From Geotalea daltonii FRC-32 (GTDB lineage Bacteria; Desulfobacterota; Desulfuromonadia; Geobacterales; Geobacteraceae), in assembly GCF_000022265.1 (NCBI RefSeq), contig NC_011979.1:1740001-1772000 (forward strand): DNA of 32,000 nucleotides, in the 5' to 3' direction. Below, piece after piece: positions 7,869 to 19,561 of the stretch (position 1 is the stretch's first letter; each line of letters opens with the position of its first letter). Below the pieces are notes generated by a model. That model saw only the letters and a program-made list of their open reading frames with translations, did not search any database and had not been told where the DNA came from. A program made the position numbers and the translations under genes.

Positions 7869-7899
7869 GATGACTCCATCCGATTAAACCAGCTGAGAA

Positions 7900-7928
7900 G
7901 GAAACAATAAAAGCCGCTGATGCGGCTT
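7900..7928 (-). terminator. Terminator-like hairpin in the thiS leader
   Basis: Minus strand: AAGCCGC-ATCA-GCGGCTT followed by TTATTGTTT. It lies between the predicted promoter and ATG 7868. Confidence 0.5.
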
Positions 7929-7951
7929 GTGGTTGCGATGACGCCTGGGGT

Positions 7952-7980
7952 AAATTACAATGTTACCCAGTTGCTGTCAA
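7952..7980 (-). promoter_or_regulatory. Near-consensus sigma-70 promoter upstream of thiS
   Basis: Minus strand: TTGACA (7980-7975), 17 nt spacer, TAATTT (7957-7952). Confidence 0.6.
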
Positions 7981-8031
7981 CTCTTTTCTTGGGGTAGAGT
8001 ATTGTTTTTAAAGGGGTTTGCGGCGATGAGG

Positions 8032-8565
8032 CTACTGTTGCAGCCGCTGTTTTCTGCCGGACTCGTCCAGGGCTTCAAGCTCCTTCCTGATCTCTTCATT
8101 GCAGAAGGTCCAGATGTGGTAGCTTTCCAGCCCTAAAACAGTGACCCCTGCGGCAAAGACTGCCCAGACATTGTCAGGCAGTACCCCTCCCAGGTGATAA
8201 AAAAGATAAAAGCCGGAAAGATATCCCACATGAGCCATGCCGCTGTAACTTTGAGAGCCCCCCATCATCCGTGACAGAATGAGGATGATGGCGGAAAAGG
8301 CATAGAGCAGAAGTGCGGTGCTGATCATGTTGGCCGATGGTGGTGTACCGAGAACGTTTCGCATCCCGGTTGGAAGGGAGGGGAGAAAGTCGAAATCCCT
8401 GATCGCCCCGATGCTGACGGCAGTGAACAGCGCCAAGGCGTGAAGCCCATGGCTGGACCTGGCTTTCAGTCGCCGGATCTTTTCCCTGCTTTCCCGGAAG
8501 CCTGGCGGCTCAGGCAACGGCTCATCATTTGCCTGCGTGTTTGAATGGGGAGCTTGCTTGCTCAT
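8032..8565 (-). CDS. Four-TM membrane protein of unknown function, last gene of the redox operon
   Basis: 177 aa with a polar N-terminal stretch of about 45 aa, then four hydrophobic segments. Conserved-looking His residues occur in AHVGYLSGFYLFYHLGG and ESYHIW. GGGAGA Shine-Dalgarno upstream. Confidence 0.7.
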   Translation of the reverse strand: MSKQAPHSNTQANDEPLPEPPGFRESREKIRRLKARSSHGLHALALFTAVSIGAIRDFDFLPSLPTGMRNVLGTPPSANMISTALLLYAFSAIILILSRMMGGSQSYSGMAHVGYLSGFYLFYHLGGVLPDNVWAVFAAGVTVLGLESYHIWTFCNEEIRKELEALDESGRKQRLQQ

Positions 8566-8606
8566 GGCCGATGGTATCTCCCGGGCCTCTGCGGCAGTGA
8601 AAGCAG

Positions 8607-9473
8607 TTACATCATTTCTTCAGCTTCCATGGCCGGCTTGTGATCGGTTTTGCGACTGCCTTTCAGTTTTCTCAGTTCCTCTTCAGCCAGTTTCAGTTGG
8701 GAAGCAATCGACCTGACATCACCGGCCAGATCGGTCAGTTCGCCGGAAATGCCTGAAAGATCATGAGAAAGACTACCACTGTTCACATTTGATGTAAATG
8801 TCCTGATTTGCCGAAGAGGCATGAAGACCTGTCGTCTCAGGAGAGCCGCGACTCCCCCGACCGATAACAGGAGGACCATGAAGCTGAAGACGATCATGCG
8901 GCTCTGCAGGACTGTCAAGTTGCTGTTCAGGTGCTCAGCCGAAAGGCCGATATCGAGGATTCCTAAAATCTTCTGGTCTGCGCTGTGGAAGTGGCACGAA
9001 GCCGTGTAGCAGGCAGGGTCATTGTAAAGGGGTGATGTTATGGCGATTATATCCTTCCCCTGCGGGTTTTGATAGCGCCTTGCCCGCTCCATCTGCTTGA
9101 GGGTTGATTTCGCTACCGGCCCGGCATGGCAGCCGATGCAACCCGCAGCCTTTTTGTCCACATAGGTGAAGACCTCACCGTGGTTGCCGGAGAACATGAC
9201 CAGCCCCTTCTTGTTGAAGATGCGCACATGCTCCACTTCATCCTGACTGCTGACGTTGTCGATGATGTTTCTCAGGGTCTCCCGGTCCCCTTTCAACATG
9301 GCGTAATGGGTCGATCTGGTGATGGTGTCGGCAAGCTTTGTTTCATAGGAGACGGCGTCGCTGATCATATCTTCTTTAAGCGCAGAGAAGAGAAGGATGC
9401 AACAGACAACGACGAATCCCGTTATGGCCACTGCTACCGGCACGATGGCTCTGGCTGTCAGGCTCTTCAACAT
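8607..9473 (-). CDS. Kinase-less membrane sensor: TM, periplasmic heme-motif domain, TM, HAMP
   Basis: GGAGGTG Shine-Dalgarno. Motifs CIGCH and CYTASCHFH are present. The protein aligns by eye along its whole length with residues 1 to about 270 of the kinase at 16314-17942. It ends after the HAMP / short coiled coil. Confidence 0.8.
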   Translation of the reverse strand: MLKSLTARAIVPVAVAITGFVVVCCILLFSALKEDMISDAVSYETKLADTITRSTHYAMLKGDRETLRNIIDNVSSQDEVEHVRIFNKKGLVMFSGNHGEVFTYVDKKAAGCIGCHAGPVAKSTLKQMERARRYQNPQGKDIIAITSPLYNDPACYTASCHFHSADQKILGILDIGLSAEHLNSNLTVLQSRMIVFSFMVLLLSVGGVAALLRRQVFMPLRQIRTFTSNVNSGSLSHDLSGISGELTDLAGDVRSIASQLKLAEEELRKLKGSRKTDHKPAMEAEEMM

Positions 9474-9520
9474 GATTGCACCTCCCCGGTCCTGCGTTTG
9501 TCCCGTGATTTCAGGTGTTT

Positions 9521-9553
9521 AAGGGGCTTCTTTTGGGGGACAAGAGGCCCCTT
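9521..9553 (-). promoter_or_regulatory. Intercistronic GC-rich stem-loop (not followed by a U-tract)
   Basis: AAGGGGCTTCTT (9521-9532) and AAGAGGCCCCTT (9542-9553) are complementary at 11 of 12 positions. The stem lies in the 99-nt gap between the nonaheme gene and the sensor gene. Confidence 0.4.
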
Positions 9554-9572
9554 CGACATCATCTTATCCCTA

Positions 9573-10337
9573 TTAAACTTTATGGCAGCGATCGCAGTTT
9601 TCCTTAACCGTAAATGCGGTTTTGCTGTCATGACATGCACCGCAGGATTTCCCTTTTTCCATTTCAGCCATGGTAACTGCTTTTTTGTGGCCGCGGTGGC
9701 TGTAGAGGTGGGCATGGCAGTCCTTGCATCCATATGCATCCAGGTGGAATACGTGGCTGAATTCCACATTGCCCGCCCCGGCTATTTTATAGCTTCGATC
9801 TTTTACGGGGTGGCAGCGGGTGCACTTGCTCAGGGCAAAACTTTTTTTCCCGTCATGACAAGCCCCGCACGACTTTCCTTTTTCCATTTCGGCCATATTC
9901 ACTCTTTTGTTTGGCCCCGGTTTGAAGATCGCGTTGTGGCAGGAACTGCACTGCATTGTCTTCAAATGCACCGAATGACTGAAGGTGGTTGGCCCGGTTT
10001 CCTTCACGTTATAGGTTATCTGGCGCACCTTATGGCATGATGTGCATCCGGAAAGGGCAAAGGCCTTGGCTCCGTTGTGGCACATGCCGCATGATTTGCC
10101 CTTGTCCATGTCTGCCATGGTATAGCGGACATTCTCTTTAAGATTGCTGTTGTGGCACGATTTGCAACCCACGTTGGCAGTTCTTGCATTTTTCTTTTTC
10201 AGGTGCGATGAGTGGCTGAAGACAACCTTGCCTGCCTTTTCCGTGTTGAAGGTTTTGTCTTTGAGTTCCATGGAGTAGGCCAGGGTGAAGCTGCCAAAGA
10301 GCATCGCCAGAATGTATGTTGTCCATCGGACTCTCAT
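9573..10337 (-). CDS. Periplasmic nonaheme cytochrome c made of three c7-type triheme modules
   Basis: Signal peptide present. Nine CXXCH motifs: CKSCH, CGMCH, CTSCH, CSSCH, CGACH, CTRCH, CKDCH, CGACH, CDRCH. The unit V.FSH..H......C..CH...(M)AEMEKGKSCG.CH......A......C..CH occurs three times. Confidence 0.9.
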   Translation of the reverse strand: MRVRWTTYILAMLFGSFTLAYSMELKDKTFNTEKAGKVVFSHSSHLKKKNARTANVGCKSCHNSNLKENVRYTMADMDKGKSCGMCHNGAKAFALSGCTSCHKVRQITYNVKETGPTTFSHSVHLKTMQCSSCHNAIFKPGPNKRVNMAEMEKGKSCGACHDGKKSFALSKCTRCHPVKDRSYKIAGAGNVEFSHVFHLDAYGCKDCHAHLYSHRGHKKAVTMAEMEKGKSCGACHDSKTAFTVKENCDRCHKV

Positions 10338-10385
10338 GACTGTCTCCTGTTACCTGGATTTAAATATGTGCCTCAACTGTTCCAA

Positions 10386-11747
10386 TTACTGGAATGAAGC
10401 CTCTTCCTTCGTCTTATAGCTGGCACCCACAGCAAGTCTTTCCTCACTCGCGTAAGCTTTGGCGACCCTGACCTTTTCCGTTGCCGGTTCCAGCGCGTCA
10501 GCGGTTTTCCATGCGTAGAGGATGGGCAGCCGGTAGAGAATGAAACGGTATACGACGATATAAATGGCGAATATGGTTACCGAGATTATCGCTTCACGCC
10601 AATGGGGAATTTCCCGCTCGGCAAGTTTCCAGTTGAAGGCGATCATGGCGGTGTTGATCCTGTTCAGAACGACGCCGAAGACGGTCAGGACGGCACTGAA
10701 ACGGACGACACCGACGAGGCGGTTCTTGATGCCGTATGCAAACAGCACAAGCGGGGCGATGACGCCGATAAAGATCTCTAACATGAACCATTGGCCCCAT
10801 CCGGTTGCCAGGTATTCCCACTCATTATCGTGGGCAATGCCGATCAGCTTGATGGTCAAATAGGTTGCAAGCCCCATGCTGGCCCCTTTGGCCAGAGCGA
10901 TGGTCAGTTTGTCCAGGTTTTCCTTGAAACGGTCGTCACAACGCCAGGCCATGGTCTTGCTGACAATGGTGCTGATGGCGATAACCATGCAAAGTCCACC
11001 CGGCAGGGATGAAACGAAAAAGTGCAACCATTGAAACGATGCCGAATACCAGAGAGGGTGTACCTTGCCTGGCGCATAGGTGAAGAGTGCCCCAAGGGCG
11101 CCCTGGTGCAAGGTAGAGAGGATGATTCCGGCCACTGTCAGGCCGAGGGTTATTTTTCGCACTCCCCGCTTGCCGACCGGGAAGCCGATCCACTCGAAAA
11201 ATGATGCCGAGACCTCCGCGACCTGCACGGAAAGATAGGTAGCCACATGCCAGGCGACCAGGAACAGTACTGCAGCAGGCCCAAAGGATACGACCATCGG
11301 GTATGGCAGGCGCCAGGGTTGCCCCAGGTCCACCAGCAGATAGACGACGGCAAAAAAGTAACCCAAGAGGCCATTCAGGAGGCCCAGGCGCTCTATGGGC
11401 TCAAAATCGTGCCGGCCGAAGATCTCGACGGTGGTGCCCAGTTGAAAACCGGAGGAGGATAGGGGGACCATGGCGAAGAGACCAAATCCGAGAAATAACC
11501 CCCATGGATAATCATTGGAGCTGTGGGTGACCCAGCTGAGACCGAAAATGAAACGGCCGAGAATGATGGGAATGCCCACGGCGAATATGGCCGCCAAAAT
11601 CCAGTTGAATGGGTTACGCAGGGCCTGGGCCACATATTGCTGTGGGGTGAGGCCGAGAAGCAGTTTTTCCATCAGCGTCCATTTTTTCTCGTCCTGCCGG
11701 TAATGGGAATCGACTATATCTATTCCTTCCTTTTTATATCTTTTCAT
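10386..11747 (-). CDS. NrfD/PsrC-type polytopic membrane quinone-interacting subunit
   Basis: ATG 11747 is preceded by GGAGGA and overlaps the FeS gene stop by 14 nt. The product is about 453 aa with many TM segments. The ORF-track N-terminal extension to 12047 runs inside the upstream gene. Confidence 0.85.
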   Translation of the reverse strand: MKRYKKEGIDIVDSHYRQDEKKWTLMEKLLLGLTPQQYVAQALRNPFNWILAAIFAVGIPIILGRFIFGLSWVTHSSNDYPWGLFLGFGLFAMVPLSSSGFQLGTTVEIFGRHDFEPIERLGLLNGLLGYFFAVVYLLVDLGQPWRLPYPMVVSFGPAAVLFLVAWHVATYLSVQVAEVSASFFEWIGFPVGKRGVRKITLGLTVAGIILSTLHQGALGALFTYAPGKVHPLWYSASFQWLHFFVSSLPGGLCMVIAISTIVSKTMAWRCDDRFKENLDKLTIALAKGASMGLATYLTIKLIGIAHDNEWEYLATGWGQWFMLEIFIGVIAPLVLFAYGIKNRLVGVVRFSAVLTVFGVVLNRINTAMIAFNWKLAEREIPHWREAIISVTIFAIYIVVYRFILYRLPILYAWKTADALEPATEKVRVAKAYASEERLAVGASYKTKEEASFQ

Positions 11748-12666
11748 TGTCGGAATCCTCCTGCGATGATTTTGGATGATCGTGCCCGTGCTCTTCTTCA
11801 TGCTCCTTTTTGCGAGTGGACAGCAGGTGGAAGCCGGTGAAAAGTGCCGGCCAGATTGCCAGTACCATGGGTACCGTGCCGAGGAATTCCTTGACATTGG
11901 AAATAATCGGTTCATTGCCCAGCGTCGTATCAAATCCCACCTTGTCGAAGGGAACACCGGAGAGATAGAGCCAGCCGGTTCCTCCCAGCTCCTTTTCGCC
12001 ATAGATGTGATCAACATATTTATCCGGAGTCTCTCGAATGCGCTCATGGCCCATTTTGATCAGATCTTTCCTGTAGCCGAAGGTCAGGACCTCCTGCGGG
12101 CACACTTCGACACAGGCTGGTGGTTTTCCGTATTTGACCCGCGTGTCGTAGCAGAAAATGCATTTTTTGACCACAGGGTTGGTGGCGCTGGAATAGCTGT
12201 AACCAGGGACATTGAAGGGACAGGCAATCATGCAGTTACGGCAGCCCACGCAGATCTTCGGGTTGTAGATAACGGCCCCTTCCTTGGTTTTAGTATAGGC
12301 ATTGACGAAGCATGAGGTGAGGCAGGCCGGTTCATTGCAATGGTTGCACTGGATTTTGCGATACACCGGGCCGCCCTGGTTTTCATAGCGATTGACAACG
12401 GTGTATGCTTCCTCCGTCGGCCGCCTTTTTTCTTCAAATACCGACTGATCGTCAAAGGGGATCTTCGGTTCGGGCAGTTTCTGCTCCTTGTTGCAGGCAG
12501 CTTCACAACTGCGGCAGCCGATGCAGCGCGTCAGGTCAACCAGGACCCCCATTCCCTCGGAATAACCTTCAAAAGAACCACTCCCCCAAGCTTTCTTTGC
12601 AGGCAGGCCAAGGGAGGATGCTGCTCCGCACAGCATGCAACCTTTCAGGAAATCTCTCCTCTTCAT
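11734..12666 (-). CDS. Tat-exported 4x[4Fe-4S] ferredoxin subunit (NrfC/HybA/HmcB family) with a C-terminal TM anchor
   Basis: Twin-arginine signal MKRRDFLKG. Four Cys clusters: CIGCRSCEAAC, CNHCNEPAC, CVGCRNCMIACP, CIFC...CVEVCP. A hydrophobic helix TVPMVLAIWPALFTGFHLL lies near the C-terminus. Confidence 0.9.
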   Translation of the reverse strand: MKRRDFLKGCMLCGAASSLGLPAKKAWGSGSFEGYSEGMGVLVDLTRCIGCRSCEAACNKEQKLPEPKIPFDDQSVFEEKRRPTEEAYTVVNRYENQGGPVYRKIQCNHCNEPACLTSCFVNAYTKTKEGAVIYNPKICVGCRNCMIACPFNVPGYSYSSATNPVVKKCIFCYDTRVKYGKPPACVEVCPQEVLTFGYRKDLIKMGHERIRETPDKYVDHIYGEKELGGTGWLYLSGVPFDKVGFDTTLGNEPIISNVKEFLGTVPMVLAIWPALFTGFHLLSTRKKEHEEEHGHDHPKSSQEDSDNEKI

Positions 12667-12707
12667 AATTGTCTCCTTGAAATACGAAGATTATTTTAGG
12701 CAAGGCT

Positions 12708-13232
12708 TTAATGCCCCTTGGCAACTTTTCCAGTCTTCTTGGGTGTGAAGCTCCCGGAGTTATAGAGAGCTTCCCCGGTCCTGTTCATCCGGTGGCAGTC
12801 CCGGCAACCTGTCGGTCCGCCCATTTTTTCATGGCATCCCATGCAGTTCAGGTGGTAGGCCCCTTTCAGTCCGGGCTTGTCCTGGTGATACAGTTTCAGG
12901 TTTGCCCGTTTCTCCTTTAGAGCTTCCGCCGAGAAGGGCTGTGCGGAATGACATCCCCGACAGGCTACCACCTTGGTTCCGCTGCTGTTCTGGTGGCATC
13001 TGGCACAGTTGGCGTCTTCCACCAGATTGCCGGTGGTGTGGTGATGGCATCCAGCGCAGTCCTTAAGGAGCCGGATATGCTGGGCGTGATTGAATTCAAC
13101 ACTGTCATAGTTTTTCACAAGCGAGTCGAGGGATATCATGTCGGGCAAATCGGCTCCCTGGCATATGTAAGGGATCGCCCCCAGCGCAATCATGAAAATG
13201 AATGTTTTTATGTTCTTTAGTCCTGTGTACAT
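12708..13232 (-). CDS. Pentaheme cytochrome c (c3/NrfB-like)
   Basis: AAGGAGA lies 7 nt before ATG 13232. Signal peptide present. Five CXXCH motifs: CAGCH, CARCH, CRGCH, CMGCH, CRDCH. Confidence 0.9.
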   Translation of the reverse strand: MYTGLKNIKTFIFMIALGAIPYICQGADLPDMISLDSLVKNYDSVEFNHAQHIRLLKDCAGCHHHTTGNLVEDANCARCHQNSSGTKVVACRGCHSAQPFSAEALKEKRANLKLYHQDKPGLKGAYHLNCMGCHEKMGGPTGCRDCHRMNRTGEALYNSGSFTPKKTGKVAKGH

Positions 13233-13282
13233 GTGGGGTTCTCCTTTGGATTGAGATAGCAATTCTTTCCGTGGCCCAAGCT

Positions 13283-13450
13283 TTACCCGTGCCTATCCCC
13301 GTCTTTGTGGATATAGCGGTAGAAAATGGGGAACCCGACAAAGAATGCAATGCAGATCAGGTATTCGACCCCTTTTATGTACTGGTAGAAATCCACCAGG
13401 GTAAAAACTTCCTTTATTTCTCCCATTGATGACAAGGCTTGATCGAGCAT
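13283..13450 (-). CDS. 55-aa single-TM protein (below the ORF-track size cut-off)
   Basis: AAAGGAGGAAAATTCC precedes ATG 13450. Product: MLDQALSSMGEIKEVFTLVDFYQYIKGVEYLICIAFFVGFPIFYRYIHKDGDRHG*. It fits exactly in the gap between flanking operon genes. Confidence 0.55.
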   Translation of the reverse strand: MLDQALSSMGEIKEVFTLVDFYQYIKGVEYLICIAFFVGFPIFYRYIHKDGDRHG

Positions 13451-13484
13451 GGAATTTTCCTCCTTTTCGCTATTTGTTTAATGG

Positions 13485-13730
13485 TCAATGTCTGATTTCA
13501 GCCTTCGCTTCTTTCTCTTTTCCTTTGCCGGCCACCAGTTCCTTGACTATTCCCCACAGGGTAAGGATGGCTGGAATCATCTGGATGACCACCACCAGGG
13601 CGCAGAAGCCGAGAAATGCCAGGACCAGAAGGCCGCTGCTGTAAACACGCGTGGTATTGGCTGCAAAAGCCTGGGGTACTGCCAGCATCCAGAGGGTAAT
13701 TGTGATGATCATTGTTTGTAGAGTTTTCAT
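13485..13730 (-). CDS. Small signal-peptide/TM protein B (81 aa), paralogue of 14191-14433
   Basis: AAGGAGA precedes ATG 13730. Product starts MKTLQTMIITITLWMLAVPQAFA-AN..LLVLAFLGFCALVVVIQMIPAIL.. and has a Lys-rich tail. The ORF-track start at 13802 is too early. Confidence 0.7.
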   Translation of the reverse strand: MKTLQTMIITITLWMLAVPQAFAANTTRVYSSGLLVLAFLGFCALVVVIQMIPAILTLWGIVKELVAGKGKEKEAKAEIRH

Positions 13731-13752
13731 GGCTTTCTCCTTTATACTTTTA

Positions 13753-14154
13753 TTAGCTCTGGGTTTTATGGGGCTTGTTTCCCTGCAGGTTCTCGAAGGC
13801 ACATTCCACTGCCTGGCGTATCTCCTCCCGGTCTTCGGGTTTTACCGGTTTCAGTGCGTGATAAAAAATGCCTTCTTTCCGCAGTTTGCGCATGAGTGGC
13901 AGAGAGATTTCATTTGAAACCAGAATGATTGTCAGGTTCTGATCGCATTTCTTCAGAATCGGCACCAGGTCAGTTGCCGTCAGTTCGTCGAATTCGCTGC
14001 TGAGCAGTACCACCTGGGCCGTCTTCTTCAGGATGCCGTAAAGCACGTTGGCTGCAGAATTGGTTACCATGACGTTGTATCCTGCTTCGATGAAGAGATC
14101 TGCCATGGATTTCCGGCTATCCAGATCTTCGTCTGCTATGAGAAGTCCTTGCAT
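13753..14154 (-). CDS. Stand-alone receiver-like domain lacking the phospho-acceptor Asp
   Basis: 133 aa with a CheY-like fold pattern. The acidic pocket is LLIADED. The beta3 end reads VVLLSSEF, with Ser where the phosphorylated Asp is expected. ILVSN and the ALKP Lys are retained. Confidence 0.75.
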   Translation of the reverse strand: MQGLLIADEDLDSRKSMADLFIEAGYNVMVTNSAANVLYGILKKTAQVVLLSSEFDELTATDLVPILKKCDQNLTIILVSNEISLPLMRKLRKEGIFYHALKPVKPEDREEIRQAVECAFENLQGNKPHKTQS

Positions 14155-14190
14155 ATCTAAACCTCTCTCCTTTTGGTTTAGCAGCTAGCT

Positions 14191-14433
14191 TTAGGATGTC
14201 TTGTCTGTTTTCTTTGCCAGAACTCGCTCTTTAGGAGCGACGAAAATCCCTTTCAGCATGGAAAAGAACAGCATAATGCCGGGGACCGCCTGAAATACGA
14301 TGATCAACGCCCCGAAGCCAAGAAACAAGTACAGCAGCAGGCTTGGTTCTGTTTTTTCCGCTCCGTTTGCAGCAAATGCTGTTGAAATGCTGCCGATGAA
14401 CGCCAATAATGCGTTTTTAATCGTGCTTTTCAT
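14191..14433 (-). CDS. Small signal-peptide/TM protein A (80 aa), first gene of the operon
   Basis: AAGGAGGA precedes ATG 14433. Product starts MKSTIKNALLAFIGSISTAFA-AN..LLLYLFLGFGALIIVFQAVPGIML.. and has a Lys-rich tail. Confidence 0.75.
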   Translation of the reverse strand: MKSTIKNALLAFIGSISTAFAANGAEKTEPSLLLYLFLGFGALIIVFQAVPGIMLFFSMLKGIFVAPKERVLAKKTDKTS

Positions 14434-14481
14434 GACATCCTCCTTTTTGTCTCCTCAGTAAGCTTCCTTGCATATGCATAC

Positions 14482-14497
14482 TGCATTGGTTATGCCT
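14482..14497 (-). promoter_or_regulatory. Sigma-54 (-24/-12) promoter of the redox operon
   Basis: Minus strand AGGCATAACCAATGCA has GG-N10-GC spacing, matching the consensus TGGCAC-N5-TTGCA. It lies about 50 nt upstream of ATG 14433, and a divergent sigma-54 activator gene sits next door. Confidence 0.65.
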
Positions 14498-14705
14498 GAT
14501 TAATAAATTTAAAATTTCTGTGGATAACTATTGGAAATTTCATGGTGTTATGCGTGACAAGTCAGGTGCAAGGCTTTGGCAGGCAACCCAAGGTGTATAG
14601 TGAATTCATACGCACAAGCAACATCAAAACCAAGCTACGGCTGCTGATTCGCCCGACACTCATGCTTTAGAAAGGCCTGCACGGTCAGAACTGTGCCTGT
14701 ATGAA

Positions 14706-14729
14706 AAAAAAATACAGCTGTATTTTTTT
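14706..14729. promoter_or_regulatory. Perfect 24-bp palindrome (candidate activator or operator site)
   Basis: AAAAAAATACAG|CTGTATTTTTTT, with a third CTGTAT copy at 14697-14702. It lies about 220 bp upstream of the sigma-54 element and about 40 bp upstream of the -35 of the activator gene. Confidence 0.4.
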
Positions 14730-14793: not shown

Positions 14794-14876
14794 GATTAAA
14801 ATGGTTAAGGCAGATTAAGTTTTAGCCCGGAACGCAGTGGGAGCATGACTCAGATGATGAAGTGAAGGGACGTGGC

Positions 14877-16298
14877 ATGGCTGGAAGGCGCATAATGGTG
14901 GTTGACGATGAGGCTATCATCAGGGAAGGGATTAATCGCATTCTCAGTGGCAGCGAATTTTTCGTCGAAACGTATGCCAACGGTTATCTTGCCCTGGAAA
15001 AGTTGCAGGAATCTTCCTTCGATCTGCTCATAACCGACCTTAAAATGCCCGGAATGGGGGGGATGGAGGTGCTGAAAAGCATCAGGGTGCTGCAGCCGGA
15101 AATGCCGGTCATCATCATAACCGGCTATTCTTCTGTGGATACTGCCGTCGAGGCTATGAAAAACGGCGCTGTGGACTATGTGTCCAAGCCGTTTACTCCC
15201 GACGAGATCCTTGCCAAGGTGAATAGCGCCCTGGAAAAAAAAGCGGTCCTGGTGGATGATATTTACCTGCGCAAGGAACTCCGCGACAATCATGGCTTTG
15301 ATCGGTTTATCGGTGCCAGCGCGGAAATGCAGAAGGTCTACCGCCGCATTATGCAGGTAGCCCCCACTGACAGCAGTGTGCTCATAACAGGGGAGAGCGG
15401 AACGGGAAAAGAGCTGGTAGCCTCTGCTATCCATAAAAACAGCCAGAGAAGAGATCAGGTTTTTGTCGCGGTTGACTGTACTTCTTTGGCGGAAAACCTT
15501 CTGGAGTCCGAGTTGTTCGGCCATGTGAGGGGCTCTTTTACCGGTGCTGTCCAAACAAAGACAGGGCTTTTCAAGGTTGCCGATGGCGGCACGCTTTTCC
15601 TGGACGAGGTGGCAAACATCAGCCTCACTACCCAGGCAAAGCTGTTGCGCGTCCTCCAGGAGCGCGAGGTTACTCCCATCGGCGGCACGCAGCCGGTTCC
15701 CATCAATATTCGTCTCATCACCGCCACCAACAGGAATCTGAAAACGATGGTAGCAGACGGCAGCTTCAGGGAGGACCTGTTCTTCCGGCTTAATATTATC
15801 CCCGTCGATCTGCCCCCATTGCGGGAGCGGAAAGGGGATTTGCCACTTTTGATTGCCTATTTTCTGAAAAAATTCGCCGATGAAATGGGCAAGGAAGTCA
15901 GGGGGCTTGCTCCCGATGCCCTCGCTCTGCTGGAAGAATATCCCTTCTCCGGCAATGTGCGTGAGCTGGAAAATATAATCGAACGGGCCGTGGTGCTGGT
16001 TGAGGGTGGGTTGATCAAGAAGGAAGACCTTGAACTGACTCTGCCTGAGGATGAAGAAGGTGAGAATATCCATGCATGCAGTCTAATACCCCAGAGTGTC
16101 TATGAACTGAAGGAAAGGAAACGGCATCTGCGCGAGATTGCCGTTGAGCCAATTGAAAAGGCTTTTGCACTGAATGCTTTGAAAAGGAACAACTGGAATG
16201 TGACGAGGGCGGCTGAACAGACTGGCATGCTTCGTCCGAACTTTCAGGCGCTGCTGAAGAAGCTGGGAATTTCCATCAGAGGGCAGTGGGACAACTGA
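14877..16298 (+). CDS. NtrC-family sigma-54-dependent response regulator (REC, AAA+, Fis-type HTH)
   Basis: REC domain with VVDDE and LLITDLKMPGMGG. Walker A motif GESGTGKE. GSFTGA loop (a variant of GAFTGA). C-terminal HTH ..NWNVTRAAEQTGMLRPNF. The start is ATG 14877 (GAAGGGA upstream) or GTG 14862. Confidence 0.92.
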   Translation: MAGRRIMVVDDEAIIREGINRILSGSEFFVETYANGYLALEKLQESSFDLLITDLKMPGMGGMEVLKSIRVLQPEMPVIIITGYSSVDTAVEAMKNGAVDYVSKPFTPDEILAKVNSALEKKAVLVDDIYLRKELRDNHGFDRFIGASAEMQKVYRRIMQVAPTDSSVLITGESGTGKELVASAIHKNSQRRDQVFVAVDCTSLAENLLESELFGHVRGSFTGAVQTKTGLFKVADGGTLFLDEVANISLTTQAKLLRVLQEREVTPIGGTQPVPINIRLITATNRNLKTMVADGSFREDLFFRLNIIPVDLPPLRERKGDLPLLIAYFLKKFADEMGKEVRGLAPDALALLEEYPFSGNVRELENIIERAVVLVEGGLIKKEDLELTLPEDEEGENIHACSLIPQSVYELKERKRHLREIAVEPIEKAFALNALKRNNWNVTRAAEQTGMLRPNFQALLKKLGISIRGQWDN

Positions 16299-16313: not shown

Positions 16314-17942
16314 TCAGGTCGGAGCAGGAAGCATGCTGTCTTTTCTACTATACATCTCCCCGCCGCAAGCAATTTCACCTCTATCTTCCCCGTTTATGGG
16401 CAGTTCGATGGTAAAGGTAGTTCCATTTCCCACCACACTCTGCACGCAAATATCGCCGCGATGATTGCGGATGATGCCGTAGGAAACCGACAACCCAAGG
16501 CCCGTTCCCTTGTTTTCTTTCGTGCTGAAAAAAGGATCGAAAATCTTCGTCAGATTTTCTTCCGGGATGCCGCAACCGGTATCGGATATGCCTATAAATT
16601 CACTCAGGCCATCTTCGGTAATACCGGTCCTTATATTGAGGCTCCCTCCATTAGCCATTGACTGTCCCGCATTGAGCAGCATGTTGATGAAAACCTGCTC
16701 GAACTGATTGGGGTCCAGCATGATGTCCGGCATATCGAAGGTATAGTCCTTGATTAGGGCTATATTCTGAAAAAGTATCTGGTGTTCCACCAGTGAGAGG
16801 GCCAGGTCCAATATGTCATTGATGGATGACAGCTTTTTCTGGGGCAGTGATTCCCGGGAGAAATCCAGAAGTCCCTTGACGATTTTGCTGCAGCGTTCCG
16901 TTTCCTGAACGATGGTCTTCAGGTCATCTTTGAGCTCCGGATCCAGTTTCGGATCGTCATTGACAAGGGAAGAAAAAACAAGAATACCGGTAAGGGGATT
17001 GTTTATTTCATGGGCGATCCCGGCCACCAACTCGCCAATGGAAGCGAGTTTTTCCGACCGGATCAACTGGGCCTGGATTGCTGTGATCTCTTTGGTACGT
17101 TCTTCAACCTTTGTCTCAAGATTCTTGGCCCAGTCTTCCAGCTCATCCCTGGCTTGCTTCAGTTTTAGGGTCATCCTGTTGAAGCTGTCAGCCAGATCAC
17201 CCAGCTCATCGCCGGAGGCAAGGGATACGGTCCCGTCCATTTCCCCCCTTGCCAGCTTTTCAGTGTGTTTCACCAGTTGCTGTACCGGCTGATTGACCAG
17301 CTGTTGGATGAAAATGGTCAGAAACAGGGAAATGAGCCCCATGAGAAGGAGCGTTATGGCGATGGTGGTACCGCGGTAAGTGGCAAGCTGCTCATTCATG
17401 TGGTCTAGTGGTATGGTCACGTCCAGCACACCGAGCACCTTTATATCGGCTGGATGAAAATGGCAGGCAGCAGTATGGCACTTTTCGTCATTATAGATGG
17501 CCTTGGCCAGGCCGAGAAGCTGCTTGCCGTCGTGTCTGGTAAACTGCCTGCTCCTGTTCATGGAAGATGCATGAATGGCGGGATTGCCGGTTTCATGGCA
17601 CATGTTGCATGCCTCGTCCTTTTTGTCCAGCAGGGTGCCGATTTCTTGAGACTGGGTAGAGCAAATGATGGTTCCCGTCTTATCCATCAGCCTGATGTTG
17701 CCGATACCCTTTTCCTTGCCGATTTCTTCAATGATCTCCTGGGTGCGACCCCGGTCATCGTAGAGCATCTGGTGCTGGGTGGCCCTGATTACCGTGTCTC
17801 CAAGCTTGTCTGCATAGGTTACCGCTTCTTCCAAAAGCAGTTTTTTCAGGCTCTCAAGGTTTATATAGGCAAAGAGCGCCATGAAAATCAGCAGGATAAG
17901 GTTTATCCAGATGACAAGTTTTGGCAGCAGGCGCAGACTCAA
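16314..17942 (-). CDS. Sensor histidine kinase with a heme-motif periplasmic domain, HAMP, HisKA and HATPase
   Basis: TTG start with GGAG 7 nt upstream. TM, then a periplasmic domain with CNMCH and CHTAACHFH, then TM, then HAMP. H-box is AHEINNPL. The ATPase region carries GTGLGLS. Confidence 0.9.
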   Translation of the reverse strand: MSLRLLPKLVIWINLILLIFMALFAYINLESLKKLLLEEAVTYADKLGDTVIRATQHQMLYDDRGRTQEIIEEIGKEKGIGNIRLMDKTGTIICSTQSQEIGTLLDKKDEACNMCHETGNPAIHASSMNRSRQFTRHDGKQLLGLAKAIYNDEKCHTAACHFHPADIKVLGVLDVTIPLDHMNEQLATYRGTTIAITLLLMGLISLFLTIFIQQLVNQPVQQLVKHTEKLARGEMDGTVSLASGDELGDLADSFNRMTLKLKQARDELEDWAKNLETKVEERTKEITAIQAQLIRSEKLASIGELVAGIAHEINNPLTGILVFSSLVNDDPKLDPELKDDLKTIVQETERCSKIVKGLLDFSRESLPQKKLSSINDILDLALSLVEHQILFQNIALIKDYTFDMPDIMLDPNQFEQVFINMLLNAGQSMANGGSLNIRTGITEDGLSEFIGISDTGCGIPEENLTKIFDPFFSTKENKGTGLGLSVSYGIIRNHRGDICVQSVVGNGTTFTIELPINGEDRGEIACGGEMYSRKDSMLPAPT

Positions 17943-17969: not shown

Positions 17970-18425
17970 TCAGCCTCGGATGATGTAGACGGAACACTTG
18001 GCAAATTTTGCCACCTTATGGGAAACGCTCCCCAGCAGTTTCCTCTTGATAAAACCCTTTCCCGAGCTGCCGATAACAATGACATCTATCTCTTCAGTTT
18101 CCGCGAATTTCAGCAACTCCTCGGCGGGATCGCCGTAAACAACCTTTATTTCCAGCGGAATGCCGGCTTCCCTGGCGTCTTTTTCAATCACATAGAGCAC
18201 ACGTTCCCTTAATTGCACCCACTCATCGGACTCGGTAATGGGAGCCGCCGGGACAAAGTCGGTAAATGTATTCCGGGGGGCATTGGGCAGAACCAACATG
18301 GCGTAGATTTTGCTTTTGAACTGGCTGGGGTTTCCGGCTGCCATGCGCACTGCTTCTTCGGCAGCCTTGTCGGAAAGTGGTGAGCCATCTATGGCCACAA
18401 GAATTTTTTTTCTGAGATTGAGCAT
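17970..18425 (-). CDS. Universal stress protein (UspA family)
   Basis: 151 aa. ILVAIDGS...DVIVIGSSGKGFIKRKLLGSVSHKV. It sits immediately upstream of the kinase on the same strand. Confidence 0.9.
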   Translation of the reverse strand: MLNLRKKILVAIDGSPLSDKAAEEAVRMAAGNPSQFKSKIYAMLVLPNAPRNTFTDFVPAAPITESDEWVQLRERVLYVIEKDAREAGIPLEIKVVYGDPAEELLKFAETEEIDVIVIGSSGKGFIKRKLLGSVSHKVAKFAKCSVYIIRG

Positions 18426-18747: not shown

Positions 18748-18781
18748 ATCCTGTTGAATCTAACAGGAACAGGTGTTACCA

Positions 18782-19561
18782 ATGGCGAAAAAAGAGAAAT
18801 CGGAATACATCATACAGGCAGTTTCCCACGCACTCGATCTTCTTGAGCAGTTCCATGACGACGTGGATGAATTGGGCGTAACTGAGTTGAGCAAACGGCT
18901 TAAGTTGCATAAAAACAATGTCTTTCGGCTTCTTGCCACTCTTGAATCCAGGAATTACATTGAGCAGAACAAAGTTACCGAGAACTATCGACTTGGGTTG
19001 AAGACTCTGGAACTGGGGCAGACATTTATCAAGCAGATGGGGCTTCTACGTCAGTCGCGACCGGTTCTCGAGTCCTTGGTGCACGACTGCAATGAAACCA
19101 CCTACGTGGCAATCCTGAAGGAATTCCATATCATTTACCTGGATGTCGTGGAAACCGATCTTACGGTAAGGGTTGTGCCTCGTGTCGGTGCAAGATTGCC
19201 TGCCTACTGCACTGCCGCCGGCAAAGTACAGATTGCCTACATGACCGACGAGGAGCTTGCCAACTTCCTGCCCAAGGAAATGAAACGTTTCACTTCCAAT
19301 ACCATAATCGACAGGGAAGAATTGAAAAAGCATCTGGCGCTGGTGGCCACGCAAGGATATGCCATCGATAACGAAGAGCTGGATGTGGGGGTAAAGTGCG
19401 TTGGAGCGCCTATTCGTGACTATACTCGCCGCATTATAGGTGCAGTGAGCATTTCAGGGCCATCAATGCGCTTTACCGATGAGCGGCTGGAAAAAGAGCT
19501 TATTCCCATGGTCATACAAGCCTCCGAAGAGATATCTTCAAAGCTTGGCTACCATAAATAA
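18782..19561 (+). CDS. IclR-family transcriptional regulator
   Basis: N-terminal wHTH LGVTELSKRLKLHKNNVFRLLATL plus an IclR effector domain (..AISISGPSMR..). The start is ATG 18782, with GTG 18773 as an alternative. Confidence 0.9.
   Translation: MAKKEKSEYIIQAVSHALDLLEQFHDDVDELGVTELSKRLKLHKNNVFRLLATLESRNYIEQNKVTENYRLGLKTLELGQTFIKQMGLLRQSRPVLESLVHDCNETTYVAILKEFHIIYLDVVETDLTVRVVPRVGARLPAYCTAAGKVQIAYMTDEELANFLPKEMKRFTSNTIIDREELKKHLALVATQGYAIDNEELDVGVKCVGAPIRDYTRRIIGAVSISGPSMRFTDERLEKELIPMVIQASEEISSKLGYHK

Follow-up and report, generated by a model that had tools for sequence, protein, structure and literature searches.

The Cbc7 locus of Geotalea daltonii FRC-32: a predicted sigma-54-dependent respiratory operon with the frame of bccR-cbcBA and a different quinol-oxidoreductase module

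Introduction

The closest described relative of the Cbc7 locus of Geotalea (formerly Geobacter) daltonii FRC-32, which lies in the 32,000-nt window analyzed here (NC_011979.1, positions 1,740,001 to 1,772,000; all coordinates below are those of the window), is the Cbc5 cluster of Geobacter sulfurreducens (cbcEDCBA, GSU0590-GSU0599). Its operon of GSU0597 (hypothetical protein), GSU0596 (receiver), GSU3489 (hypothetical protein), cbcA and cbcB has a sigma-54 promoter and a divergently oriented bccR, and is followed by cbcC, cbcD and cbcE; a terminator lies after cbcB, delimiting a five-gene operon, and the whole frame forms two transcription units in this organism (Joshi et al., 2021, bioRxiv 10.1101/2021.04.15.440034). 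Below -0.21 V, Fe(III) reduction by G. sulfurreducens requires the quinol oxidase CbcBA (Joshi et al., 2021), and the cytochrome CbcC takes electrons from CbcA in vitro and has an expression time course different from that of cbcBA (review PMC13591261). GSU0592, which encodes CbcC, is the sole conserved member listed by Butler et al. (2010). Studies of respiration close to the thermodynamic limit in Geobacter-type bacteria are based on G. sulfurreducens, in which CbcBA is turned on by BccR. Comparison of the G. daltonii locus with this system indicates, with moderate confidence, a respiratory operon under sigma-54 control in which the same regulatory and accessory genes, hereafter the chassis, are combined with a different quinol oxidoreductase as the cargo.

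Gene content and existing annotation of the locus

Open reading frame (ORF) analysis of the window revealed ten co-directional minus-strand genes spanning positions 14433 to 8032, designated g1 to g10 from the promoter-proximal end:

14191-14433, minus strand: g1 (Geob_1598), 80 aa, signal peptide and one transmembrane (TM) helix; GSU0597 counterpart and paralogue of g3
13753-14154, minus strand: g2 (Geob_1597), 133 aa, stand-alone receiver lacking the phospho-acceptor Asp; GSU0596 counterpart
13485-13730, minus strand: g3 (Geob_1596), 81 aa, signal peptide and one TM helix; GSU3489 counterpart and paralogue of g1
13283-13450, minus strand: g4 (Geob_1595), 55 aa, single TM helix, weakly HmcD-like
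12708-13232, minus strand: g5 (Geob_1594), 174 aa, periplasmic pentaheme cytochrome c
11734-12666, minus strand: g6 (Geob_1593), 310 aa, protein with four [4Fe-4S] motifs exported by the twin-arginine translocation (Tat) pathway, with a C-terminal TM anchor; HmcB/HybA-like
10386-11747, minus strand: g7 (Geob_1592), 453 aa, NrfD-family integral membrane protein; HmcC/HybB/ActC-like
9573-10337, minus strand: g8 (Geob_1591), 254 aa, periplasmic nonaheme cytochrome with three c7 domains; CbcC/OmcQ homologue
8607-9473, minus strand: g9 (Geob_1590), 288 aa, kinase-less heme-c sensor; CbcD homologue
8032-8565, minus strand: g10 (Geob_1589), 177 aa, membrane protein; CbcE homologue

From g1 to g10, the junctions measure 36, 22, 34, 50 and 41 nt, a 14-nt overlap (g6/g7), and 48, 99 (g8/g9) and 41 nt. 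The genes and junctions are as given in the preliminary description of this DNA, as are its Shine-Dalgarno sites, to which that of the receiver g2, AAAGGAGAGAGG, can be added, so that a purine run of this kind precedes all ten starts. The deduced proteins are exact matches to ACM19947-ACM19956 (Geob_1589-Geob_1598), and the same ten genes were called independently on metagenome contigs carrying identical proteins.

In GenBank, g4 to g10 (ACM19953-ACM19947, Geob_1595-1589) are designated as putative subunits of a 'menaquinol oxidoreductase complex Cbc7', namely a membrane protein (g4), 5-heme cytochrome c (g5), iron-sulfur protein (g6), 'cytochrome b' (g7), 9-heme cytochrome c (g8), HAMP cytochrome c (g9) and membrane protein (g10), while g1 and g3 are hypothetical proteins and g2 is a 'response receiver'. 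Literature searches for Cbc7 together with Geobacter, for the Geob_159x (Geob_1590-1597) tags and for the Gura_365x (Gura_3649-3656) tags returned no paper.

The frame of the locus is that of the Cbc5 cluster

The genes surrounding the core were compared with a cbcBA-type locus of Geobacter hydrogenophilus (L015) and with other cbcBA-type loci, and the frame identities given here refer to these rather than to the G. sulfurreducens sequences. Locus L015 begins with a small TM protein, a receiver (76% identical to g2) and a second small TM protein, followed by CbcA, with seven CXXCH motifs and a C-terminal TM helix, and CbcB. It continues with a 12-heme c7 polymer, CbcD, CbcE (50, 52 and 56% identical to g8, g9 and g10, respectively), thiS and thiG, and has a divergent activator and a kinase upstream (74 and 60% identity, respectively). 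All frame genes occur in the same order in the window and in L015, with identities of 45-76%, and the adjacency to thiS/thiG is common to both. Exactly where L015 has CbcA and CbcB, the window has g4 to g7, and no match to CbcA or CbcB was found anywhere in its 32 kb.

Similar values were obtained for individual frame proteins. The g2 receiver is 73-76% identical to those of Geobacter metallireducens and G. hydrogenophilus, g8 is about 50% identical to CbcC of cbcBA-type loci, and g10 is 52-61% identical to their CbcE; homologues of g1 lead Cbc7-type and cbcBA-type operons alike. The genes g1-g3, g9 and g10 thus belong to the chassis and not to the cargo, and of the genes that had been placed outside the described modules in the preliminary description only g4 belongs to the new cargo. 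The regulation of cbcBA by BccR, cited there as a precedent, proves to be more than an analogy, the two loci being syntenic.

Promoter, candidate activator site and regulators

The following regulatory features lie upstream of g1:

14482-14497, minus strand: sigma-54 promoter AGGCATAACCAATGCA (-24 GG / -12 GC, 10-nt spacing), with a predicted transcript start near 14472
14595-14611, no strand assigned: candidate activator site, palindrome GTATGAATTCACTATAC (consensus GTATA-N7-TATAC), 114 bp upstream of the promoter motif as measured from first base to first base
14699-14715, no strand assigned: weaker palindrome copy GTATTTTTTTTTCATAC, with 2 mismatches, 104 bp from the first copy
14862-16298, plus strand: divergent NtrC-type sigma-54 activator with receiver, AAA+ and DNA-binding parts (Pfam Response_reg and Sigma54_activat), in the position of BccR (GSU0598)
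16314-17942, minus strand: sensor histidine kinase with a periplasmic heme-c sensor domain (CNMCH, CHTAACH), HAMP, HisKA and HATPase domains

Taken alone, AGGCATAACCAATGCA agrees with the consensus at 8 of 12 positions, a score which is not above chance, since 60 matches of at least 8/12 occur on both strands of the window (64 kb). A motif of the form YGGCAY-N6-TGCA does, however, precede the g1 homologue by 60-100 nt in about 59 related loci, the cbcBA-type Geobacter loci included, and these orthologous motifs often reach 10-11 of the 12 positions, as TGGCACG-N4-NTGCA. It is this conservation at the orthologous position, and not the consensus score, that makes the GG-N10-GC promoter of the preliminary description credible. 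In G. sulfurreducens the orthologous promoter is experimentally BccR-dependent (Joshi et al., 2021).

The GTATA-N7-TATAC palindrome, with at most one mismatch, is present in 51 of the 59 related loci, against a background of 0.09 per kb, and stands out as a conserved block in the upstream alignment, separated from the promoter by an A/T-rich stretch. Its distance to the promoter is mostly 111-116 bp (range 91-125 bp, with two outliers at 205 bp) and is about 100-104 bp in Geobacter sensu stricto and a few other loci. It is common to the Cbc7-type and cbcBA-type frames, and the paralogous cbcBA operons of the B type described below lack it in their upstream regions. The arrangement of palindrome and promoter is the layout expected of an enhancer-binding-protein site, and the palindrome is accordingly regarded as a candidate site.

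Domain searches confirmed the activator and the heme-motif sensor kinase that had been recognized next to the operon. The activator, for which an internal ATG at 14877 or 14895 is a possible alternative start, is 72-75% identical to the activators beside cbcBA in Geobacter sensu stricto loci (about 74% in G. hydrogenophilus), as opposed to 36-41% for those of the B-type operons, and the sensor kinase is 57-60% identical to the kinases of cbcBA-type loci. With a conserved -24/-12 promoter, an adjacent activator carrying a Sigma54_activat domain and an upstream candidate site, the locus has the composition of an operon controlled by sigma-54 and a bacterial enhancer-binding protein.

The core redox module

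The assignment of the core to the NrfCD/Hmc type, already made in the preliminary description, was upheld by profile, Protein Data Bank (PDB) and fold matches. The small protein g4, whose central segment is strongly conserved among 64 homologues, matches the NCBIfam HmcD profile with an E value of 1.3e-3 and 18.7 bits (cutoff 34). The cytochrome g5 contains five CXXCH motifs, a number kept in 59 of its 60 homologues; its similarity is to the C-terminal domain found in the 16-heme HmcA and in the nine-heme cytochromes (PDB 1h29/1gws, residues ~400-540, E value of 1e-15; also 1duw/19hc), and it scores 44 against a cutoff of 400 with the NCBIfam HmcA profile. The sequence of g6 carries the twin-arginine motif RRDFLK and four Cys groups, and a TM helix lies near the C terminus, at residues 261-279; the protein scores 397 bits with NCBIfam HmcB (cutoff 420) and 203 bits with HybA, matches Pfam Fer4_11, and has FdnH and NrfC/PsrB as PDB matches. 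The membrane protein g7 scores 357 bits with NCBIfam HmcC (cutoff 550), 163 bits with HybB and 38 bits with QrcD; it gave no Pfam match, NrfD included, and no PDB sequence match. An AlphaFold (AF2) model of g7, built from 26 homologues, shows ten long helices at a moderate predicted local distance difference test score (pLDDT) of 62.6, and Foldseek placed it closest to the alternative complex III (ACIII) subunits ActC and ActF, with E values of 4e-6 to 5e-4, a probability of 1.0 and a TM-score of about 0.5. ACIII is an established quinol:cytochrome c oxidoreductase.

The core thus contains the two subunits characteristic of NrfCD/ACIII-type complexes, a Tat-exported, periplasmic ferredoxin-like protein with four [4Fe-4S] motifs (g6) and a polytopic membrane protein of the NrfD family, as judged from profiles and fold (g7), the latter being the presumed quinol site. 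It is a reduced Hmc/Nhc-like, ACIII-like module, consisting of a small TM subunit, a pentaheme cytochrome, a four-cluster iron-sulfur protein and an NrfD-family protein, and is not Hmc proper, because all Hmc scores fall below the equivalog cutoffs.

Distribution of Cbc7-type loci and the paralogous cbcBA operon

All window proteins were mapped onto 80 species-level loci encoding relatives of g2, a sample biased toward the relatives of the query. The leader triad (small TM protein, receiver, small TM protein) is followed by the Cbc7 core in about 62 of these loci and by CbcA and CbcB in 14; the rest, mostly truncated contigs, were left unassigned. Cbc7-type loci were found in Geotalea, Geomonas, Citrifermentans bremense, Geoalkalibacter and many metagenome-assembled genomes (MAGs) of Desulfuromonadales, and the cbcBA-type loci include G. 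hydrogenophilus, Geobacter sp. AOG1 and Geomobilimonas luticola. A g8 homologue is present in only about 16 Cbc7-type loci, with g9 elsewhere directly following g7; the form with nine genes is therefore the commoner one, of which the ten-gene form is a Geotalea-like subtype.

At least ten Cbc7-type loci harbor a second, paralogous sigma-54 operon (B-type) 6-8 kb away on the other strand, with its own kinase and activator, the kinases having cytoplasmic sensing domains. It comprises its own leader triad (with a receiver that is 50-61% identical and likewise Asp-less), CbcA, CbcB and, in several loci, a g10-like gene. B-type operons were noted in L009:1892-4759 (minus strand), L085:3640-11223 (G. 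uraniireducens Rf4), L013, L021, L063, L072 and L081. In G. uraniireducens Rf4, the B-type operon is located at a distant site, behind a hybrid GAF/PAS kinase and an activator, and possesses a sigma-54 motif and no GTATA-N7-TATAC palindrome. For G. daltonii, Geob_3403 has been reported as the CbcA counterpart (PMC9961858, Table 3).

Neighbour-joining trees of these short proteins, calculated without support values, placed the B-type receivers apart from all receivers of the first frame, whichever cargo that frame carries, and united the CbcB proteins of the first frame in one clade. Together with the activator identities, the receiver and CbcB trees suggest that the bccR-cbcBA and Cbc7 arrangements represent one regulatory frame whose cargo was exchanged once. 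As judged from sequence comparison, the activator most similar to the cbcBA neighbour of Geobacter sensu stricto sits beside Cbc7 in many relatives, and cbcBA sits there beside a different activator. A more general proposal can be put forward tentatively, at somewhat less than even likelihood: a conserved redox-sensing chassis (the BccR-type regulatory set, the leader triad and CbcD/CbcE) would carry interchangeable quinol-oxidoreductase cargo, which would be Cbc7 in most of the sampled Desulfuromonadales (Geotalea, Geomonas, Citrifermentans and many MAGs), where cbcBA would be under a different activator, and CbcBA in Geobacter sensu stricto, G. sulfurreducens included. If this is true, the low-potential quinol oxidase under BccR control would for most of the order be Cbc7 and not CbcBA, and the wiring of G. 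sulfurreducens would be the exception.

Accessory genes

The remaining characters of the accessory genes, namely paralogous small proteins, an Asp-less receiver, a c7 trimer and a kinase-less heme sensor, had been read from the sequence in the preliminary description and were verified by alignments and domain searches. The proteins g1 and g3 are paralogues, with 38% identity over 47 aa (E value of 8e-11). The g2 protein belongs to Pfam Response_reg (2.9e-9). It is too diverged from the activator's own receiver domain for comparison by BLASTP, and the question of its Asp was decided by a multiple alignment with BccR receivers and CheY, in which Ser52 aligns with D57 of CheY and with the Asp of BccR; homologues have Ser, Gly or Asn at this phospho-acceptor position, and D8/E9, S80 and K102 are kept in g2. 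An invariant D56 was also observed four residues past the missing phospho-acceptor Asp (VVLLSSEFD).

The cytochrome g8 has nine CXXCH motifs and three Cytochrome_C7 stretches (1.2e-47), and TIGR04257 was matched three times. The heme motifs of g9 are CIGCH (CXXCH) and CYTASCH (CX4CH), and 64 of its 69 homologues keep one of each; they lie in a periplasmic heme-c sensor domain between TM helices at residues 10-28 and 194-212, which is followed by a HAMP-like segment and no kinase domain. A PDB sequence search with g9 gave chance matches only. The protein aligns collinearly with residues 40-277 of the histidine kinase next door (31% identity, E value of 5e-41). Both heme motifs (CIGCH/CNMCH and CYTASCH/CHTAACH) fall within the region in common, as do the second of the TM helices and the HAMP-like segment, and the similarity stops before any kinase domain. 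In g10 there is one near-invariant His (H112) and a weak match to Pfam Yip1 (E value of 1.3e-4).

Two Cbc7-type loci, L024:1629-4518 and L032:2431-5338, have the g9 and g10 homologues on the other strand, beside the activator and not downstream of g7; the sensor paralogue and CbcE are therefore separable from the oxidoreductase genes.

Transcript organisation

The end of the operon is marked by an intrinsic terminator:

7911-7928, minus strand: hairpin AAGCCGC-AUCA-GCGGCUU followed by UUAUUGUUU, after g10 and upstream of thiS

An equivalent hairpin follows CbcE in L015. Neither a hairpin nor a sigma-70-like site was found in the 48-nt gap between g7 and g8, and this, together with the clear terminator after g10, makes a single ten-gene transcript in G. 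daltonii plausible on sequence grounds. One candidate within the same gap, the sigma-54-like match TGGAACAGTTGAGGCA (10369-10384, minus strand; 8/12; 32 nt upstream of the g8 start codon), was rejected as a chance occurrence because it is kept only in G. daltonii and G. toluenoxydans and is absent in other g8-bearing loci.

The alternative, that g1-g7 are sigma-54-dependent and that g8-g10, the cbcCDE homologues, are transcribed separately as in G. sulfurreducens, is the less likely reading for G. daltonii. It draws on the terminator that closes the five-gene operon after cbcB (Joshi et al., 2021), on the deviating time course of CbcC in G. sulfurreducens, and on L015, where the cbcB-cbcC gap of 179 nt (about 180 nt in cbcBA-type loci) contains a near-consensus sigma-70-like promoter, TTGACT-17-TATAAT (L015:12563-12591; 11/12), which fits separate cbcCDE transcription, as in the two units of G. 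sulfurreducens. The short g7-g8 gap of G. daltonii offers no comparable element, and the sigma-54-like match at 10384 is not conserved beyond the closest relatives. A GC-rich hairpin in the g8-g9 gap (AAGGGGC...GCCCCUU; 9521-9553, minus strand) could be counted in favor of two units; it lacks a U-tract and is no stabler than shuffled sequence (z = -0.83), and was rejected as an internal terminator. It could instead be an RNA processing or stability element.

Adjacent genes

Between g10 and thiS (7869-8031), a sigma-70-like sequence, TTGACA...TGTAAT (approximately 7978-7950), was observed in addition to the terminator; thiS is followed by thiG and thiE. A scan of the whole window with Rfam yielded no family at the gathering score, and no thiamine pyrophosphate (TPP) riboswitch before thiS. 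On the other side of the locus, the gene immediately upstream of the sensor kinase, in the same orientation, encodes a universal stress protein (17970-18425, minus strand) and is followed by an IclR-type regulator (18773-19561, plus strand). The stress protein gene was detected in the three closest related loci (L005-L007), at 93-99% identity, and in none of the others. Long antisense ORFs at 9126-10040 (plus strand, over g8/g9), 14850-16073 (minus strand, over the activator) and 11776-12315 (plus strand, over g6) look like shadow ORFs rather than genes.

Proposed function and alternative explanations

In the proposed scheme, the heme-c sensor kinase (16314-17942) would sense the periplasmic redox state and phosphorylate the activator in the BccR position (14862-16298), which would bind the palindrome at 14611-14595 and switch on the -24/-12 promoter (14497-14482) across the A/T-rich spacer, leading to transcription from g1 to g10 and termination at 7928-7911. 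Menaquinol would be oxidised by the 10-helix NrfD/ActC-like g7, from which electrons would pass through the four [4Fe-4S] clusters of the membrane-anchored g6 to the pentaheme g5, the HmcD-like g4 being a small subunit in the membrane, and then, by analogy with the transfer from CbcA to CbcC, to the nonaheme g8 and periplasmic cytochromes of the PpcA type. The kinase-less sensor g9 may pair with the kinase and modulate it, g2 may be a phosphorylation-independent partner of signalling proteins, and for g1, g3, g4 and g10 a role in assembly or as small subunits in the membrane is conceivable; for g1-g3, g9 and g10 as a group, modulation of signalling or assembly is most likely. The leader triad and the kinase-less sensor are common to both cargo types, and their function should therefore be independent of the cargo.

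Several points weigh against this scheme. Literature searches gave no expression, genetic or biochemical work on Cbc7 in any organism, and the confidence of the g7 model is only moderate (pLDDT 62.6). The Hmc, Nhc and Qrc complexes of sulfate reducers move electrons from periplasmic cytochromes toward the membrane or quinone, so that the direction of electron flow cannot be read from homology alone. The presence of cbcBA in a second operon in G. uraniireducens Rf4 and the reported Geob_3403 mean that Cbc7 need not do the job of CbcBA, and from the two units of G. sulfurreducens and the cbcB-cbcC promoter of L015 it follows that g8-g10 could be separately expressed.

Electron flow in the opposite direction is the main alternative. 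Cbc7 would then work like Qrc, Hmc or Nhc and feed the menaquinone pool, for instance in fumarate respiration, with electrons taken from reduced periplasmic cytochromes, their source being H2, formate, electrodes or syntrophic partners. The closest curated families are indeed Desulfovibrio Hmc subunits and HybA/HybB, and g5 resembles the HmcA/nine-heme cytochrome domain, which accepts electrons from cytochrome c3; in addition, the redox equilibria between Cbc clusters and PpcA-family cytochromes are reported to be reversible (PMC13591261). Set against this, the same chassis drives a quinol oxidase for Fe(III) reduction below -0.21 V in G. sulfurreducens, the cytoplasmic HmcE/HmcF partners are absent, and in fold the g7 model comes closest to the quinol oxidase ACIII; reversed flow is rather improbable.

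That the cluster is an unprecedented NrfCD composite with private signalling components, outside any described system, is very improbable and is refuted as stated, even though no Cbc7 publication was found in the literature searches and g1-g3, g9 and g10 have no known functions in any organism, since the cluster is named in GenBank, each 'private' component has a homologue in the same position of the published Cbc5/bcc cluster, and the arrangement recurs in about 62 of the 80 related species-level loci. The claim in the preliminary description that the gene composition lacks precedent falls on the same grounds, the accessory genes being Cbc5/bcc companions; as to prior characterisation under a known name, the name exists and a characterising publication was not found.

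Under the preferred explanation, a sigma-54-dependent operon with Cbc7 as a quinol oxidase on the bccR-cbcBA chassis, the locus has consequences for inferences from the model organism. In Geotalea, an activator of about 74% identity, with the same promoter architecture and accessory genes, is predicted to control a different enzyme, Cbc7, and the same applies to about three quarters of the related loci sampled, so regulatory or marker-gene inferences drawn from G. sulfurreducens to environmental Desulfuromonadales may indicate the wrong complex. Cbc7 thereby becomes a specific candidate for a low-potential quinol oxidase that can be put to the test. The relationship of Cbc7 and CbcBA as exchanged cargo, the conserved palindrome as a candidate activator site and the pairing of activator and cargo were not found in the literature searches and are proposed as new.

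Comparison with known systems

With the Hmc and Nhc (9Hc) complexes of Desulfovibrio, the core has in common an HmcB-like four-cluster protein with a C-terminal anchor, an HmcC-like subunit of the NrfD family, a small HmcD-like TM protein, and a pentaheme cytochrome related to the C-terminal domain of HmcA and the nine-heme cytochrome. It differs in its scores, which remain below the NCBIfam equivalog cutoffs (397/420, 357/550, 18.7/34 and 44/400), in the 5 hemes of g5 instead of 16 or 9, in the gene order D-A-B-C, and in the sigma-54 regulatory frame around the module; genes for HmcE (b-type) and HmcF (HdrD-like) were found neither in nor beside the cluster.

The pentaheme cytochrome, the four-cluster iron-sulfur protein and the 10-helix quinol subunit of the NrfD family likewise recall ACIII (ActABCDEF) and NrfCD/PsrBC, whereas the identity between g7 and ActC is 13-16%, only one NrfD-like subunit is present, and there is neither an ActB molybdopterin-like domain nor ActD/ActE.

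The Cbc3 (CbcVWX), Cbc4 (CbcSTU) and Cbc6 (CbcMNOPQR) clusters of G. sulfurreducens resemble Cbc7 as predicted inner-membrane quinol:cytochrome c oxidoreductases that combine an iron-sulfur protein, a membrane subunit and a multiheme cytochrome. Cbc4 has a membrane-anchored tetraheme cytochrome of the NapC/NirT type (CbcS), which by description excludes orthology. No G. daltonii counterpart of CbcX is given in PMC9961858, Table 3, and the annotators of G. daltonii gave the cluster a separate number, Cbc7.

The likeness to Cbc5 of G. sulfurreducens is the most extensive, comprising the divergent sigma-54 activator, the heme-sensor kinase, the -24/-12 promoter, the GTATA-N7-TATAC palindrome, the leader triad of a small TM protein, an Asp-less receiver and a second small TM protein, the trailing CbcC, CbcD and CbcE, and the location next to thiS/thiG. 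The differences are concentrated in the cargo, a heptaheme CbcA and a diheme b-type CbcB in Cbc5 as opposed to g4-g7 in the window, of the Hmc/NrfCD type and lacking a b-type cytochrome, and extend to CbcC (GSU0592), with 12 hemes compared with 9 in g8, and to the gap between core and CbcC, about 180 nt compared with 48 nt in the window. The locus is thus a named, widespread and uncharacterised variant of the BccR/Cbc5 system, and not a new kind of system.

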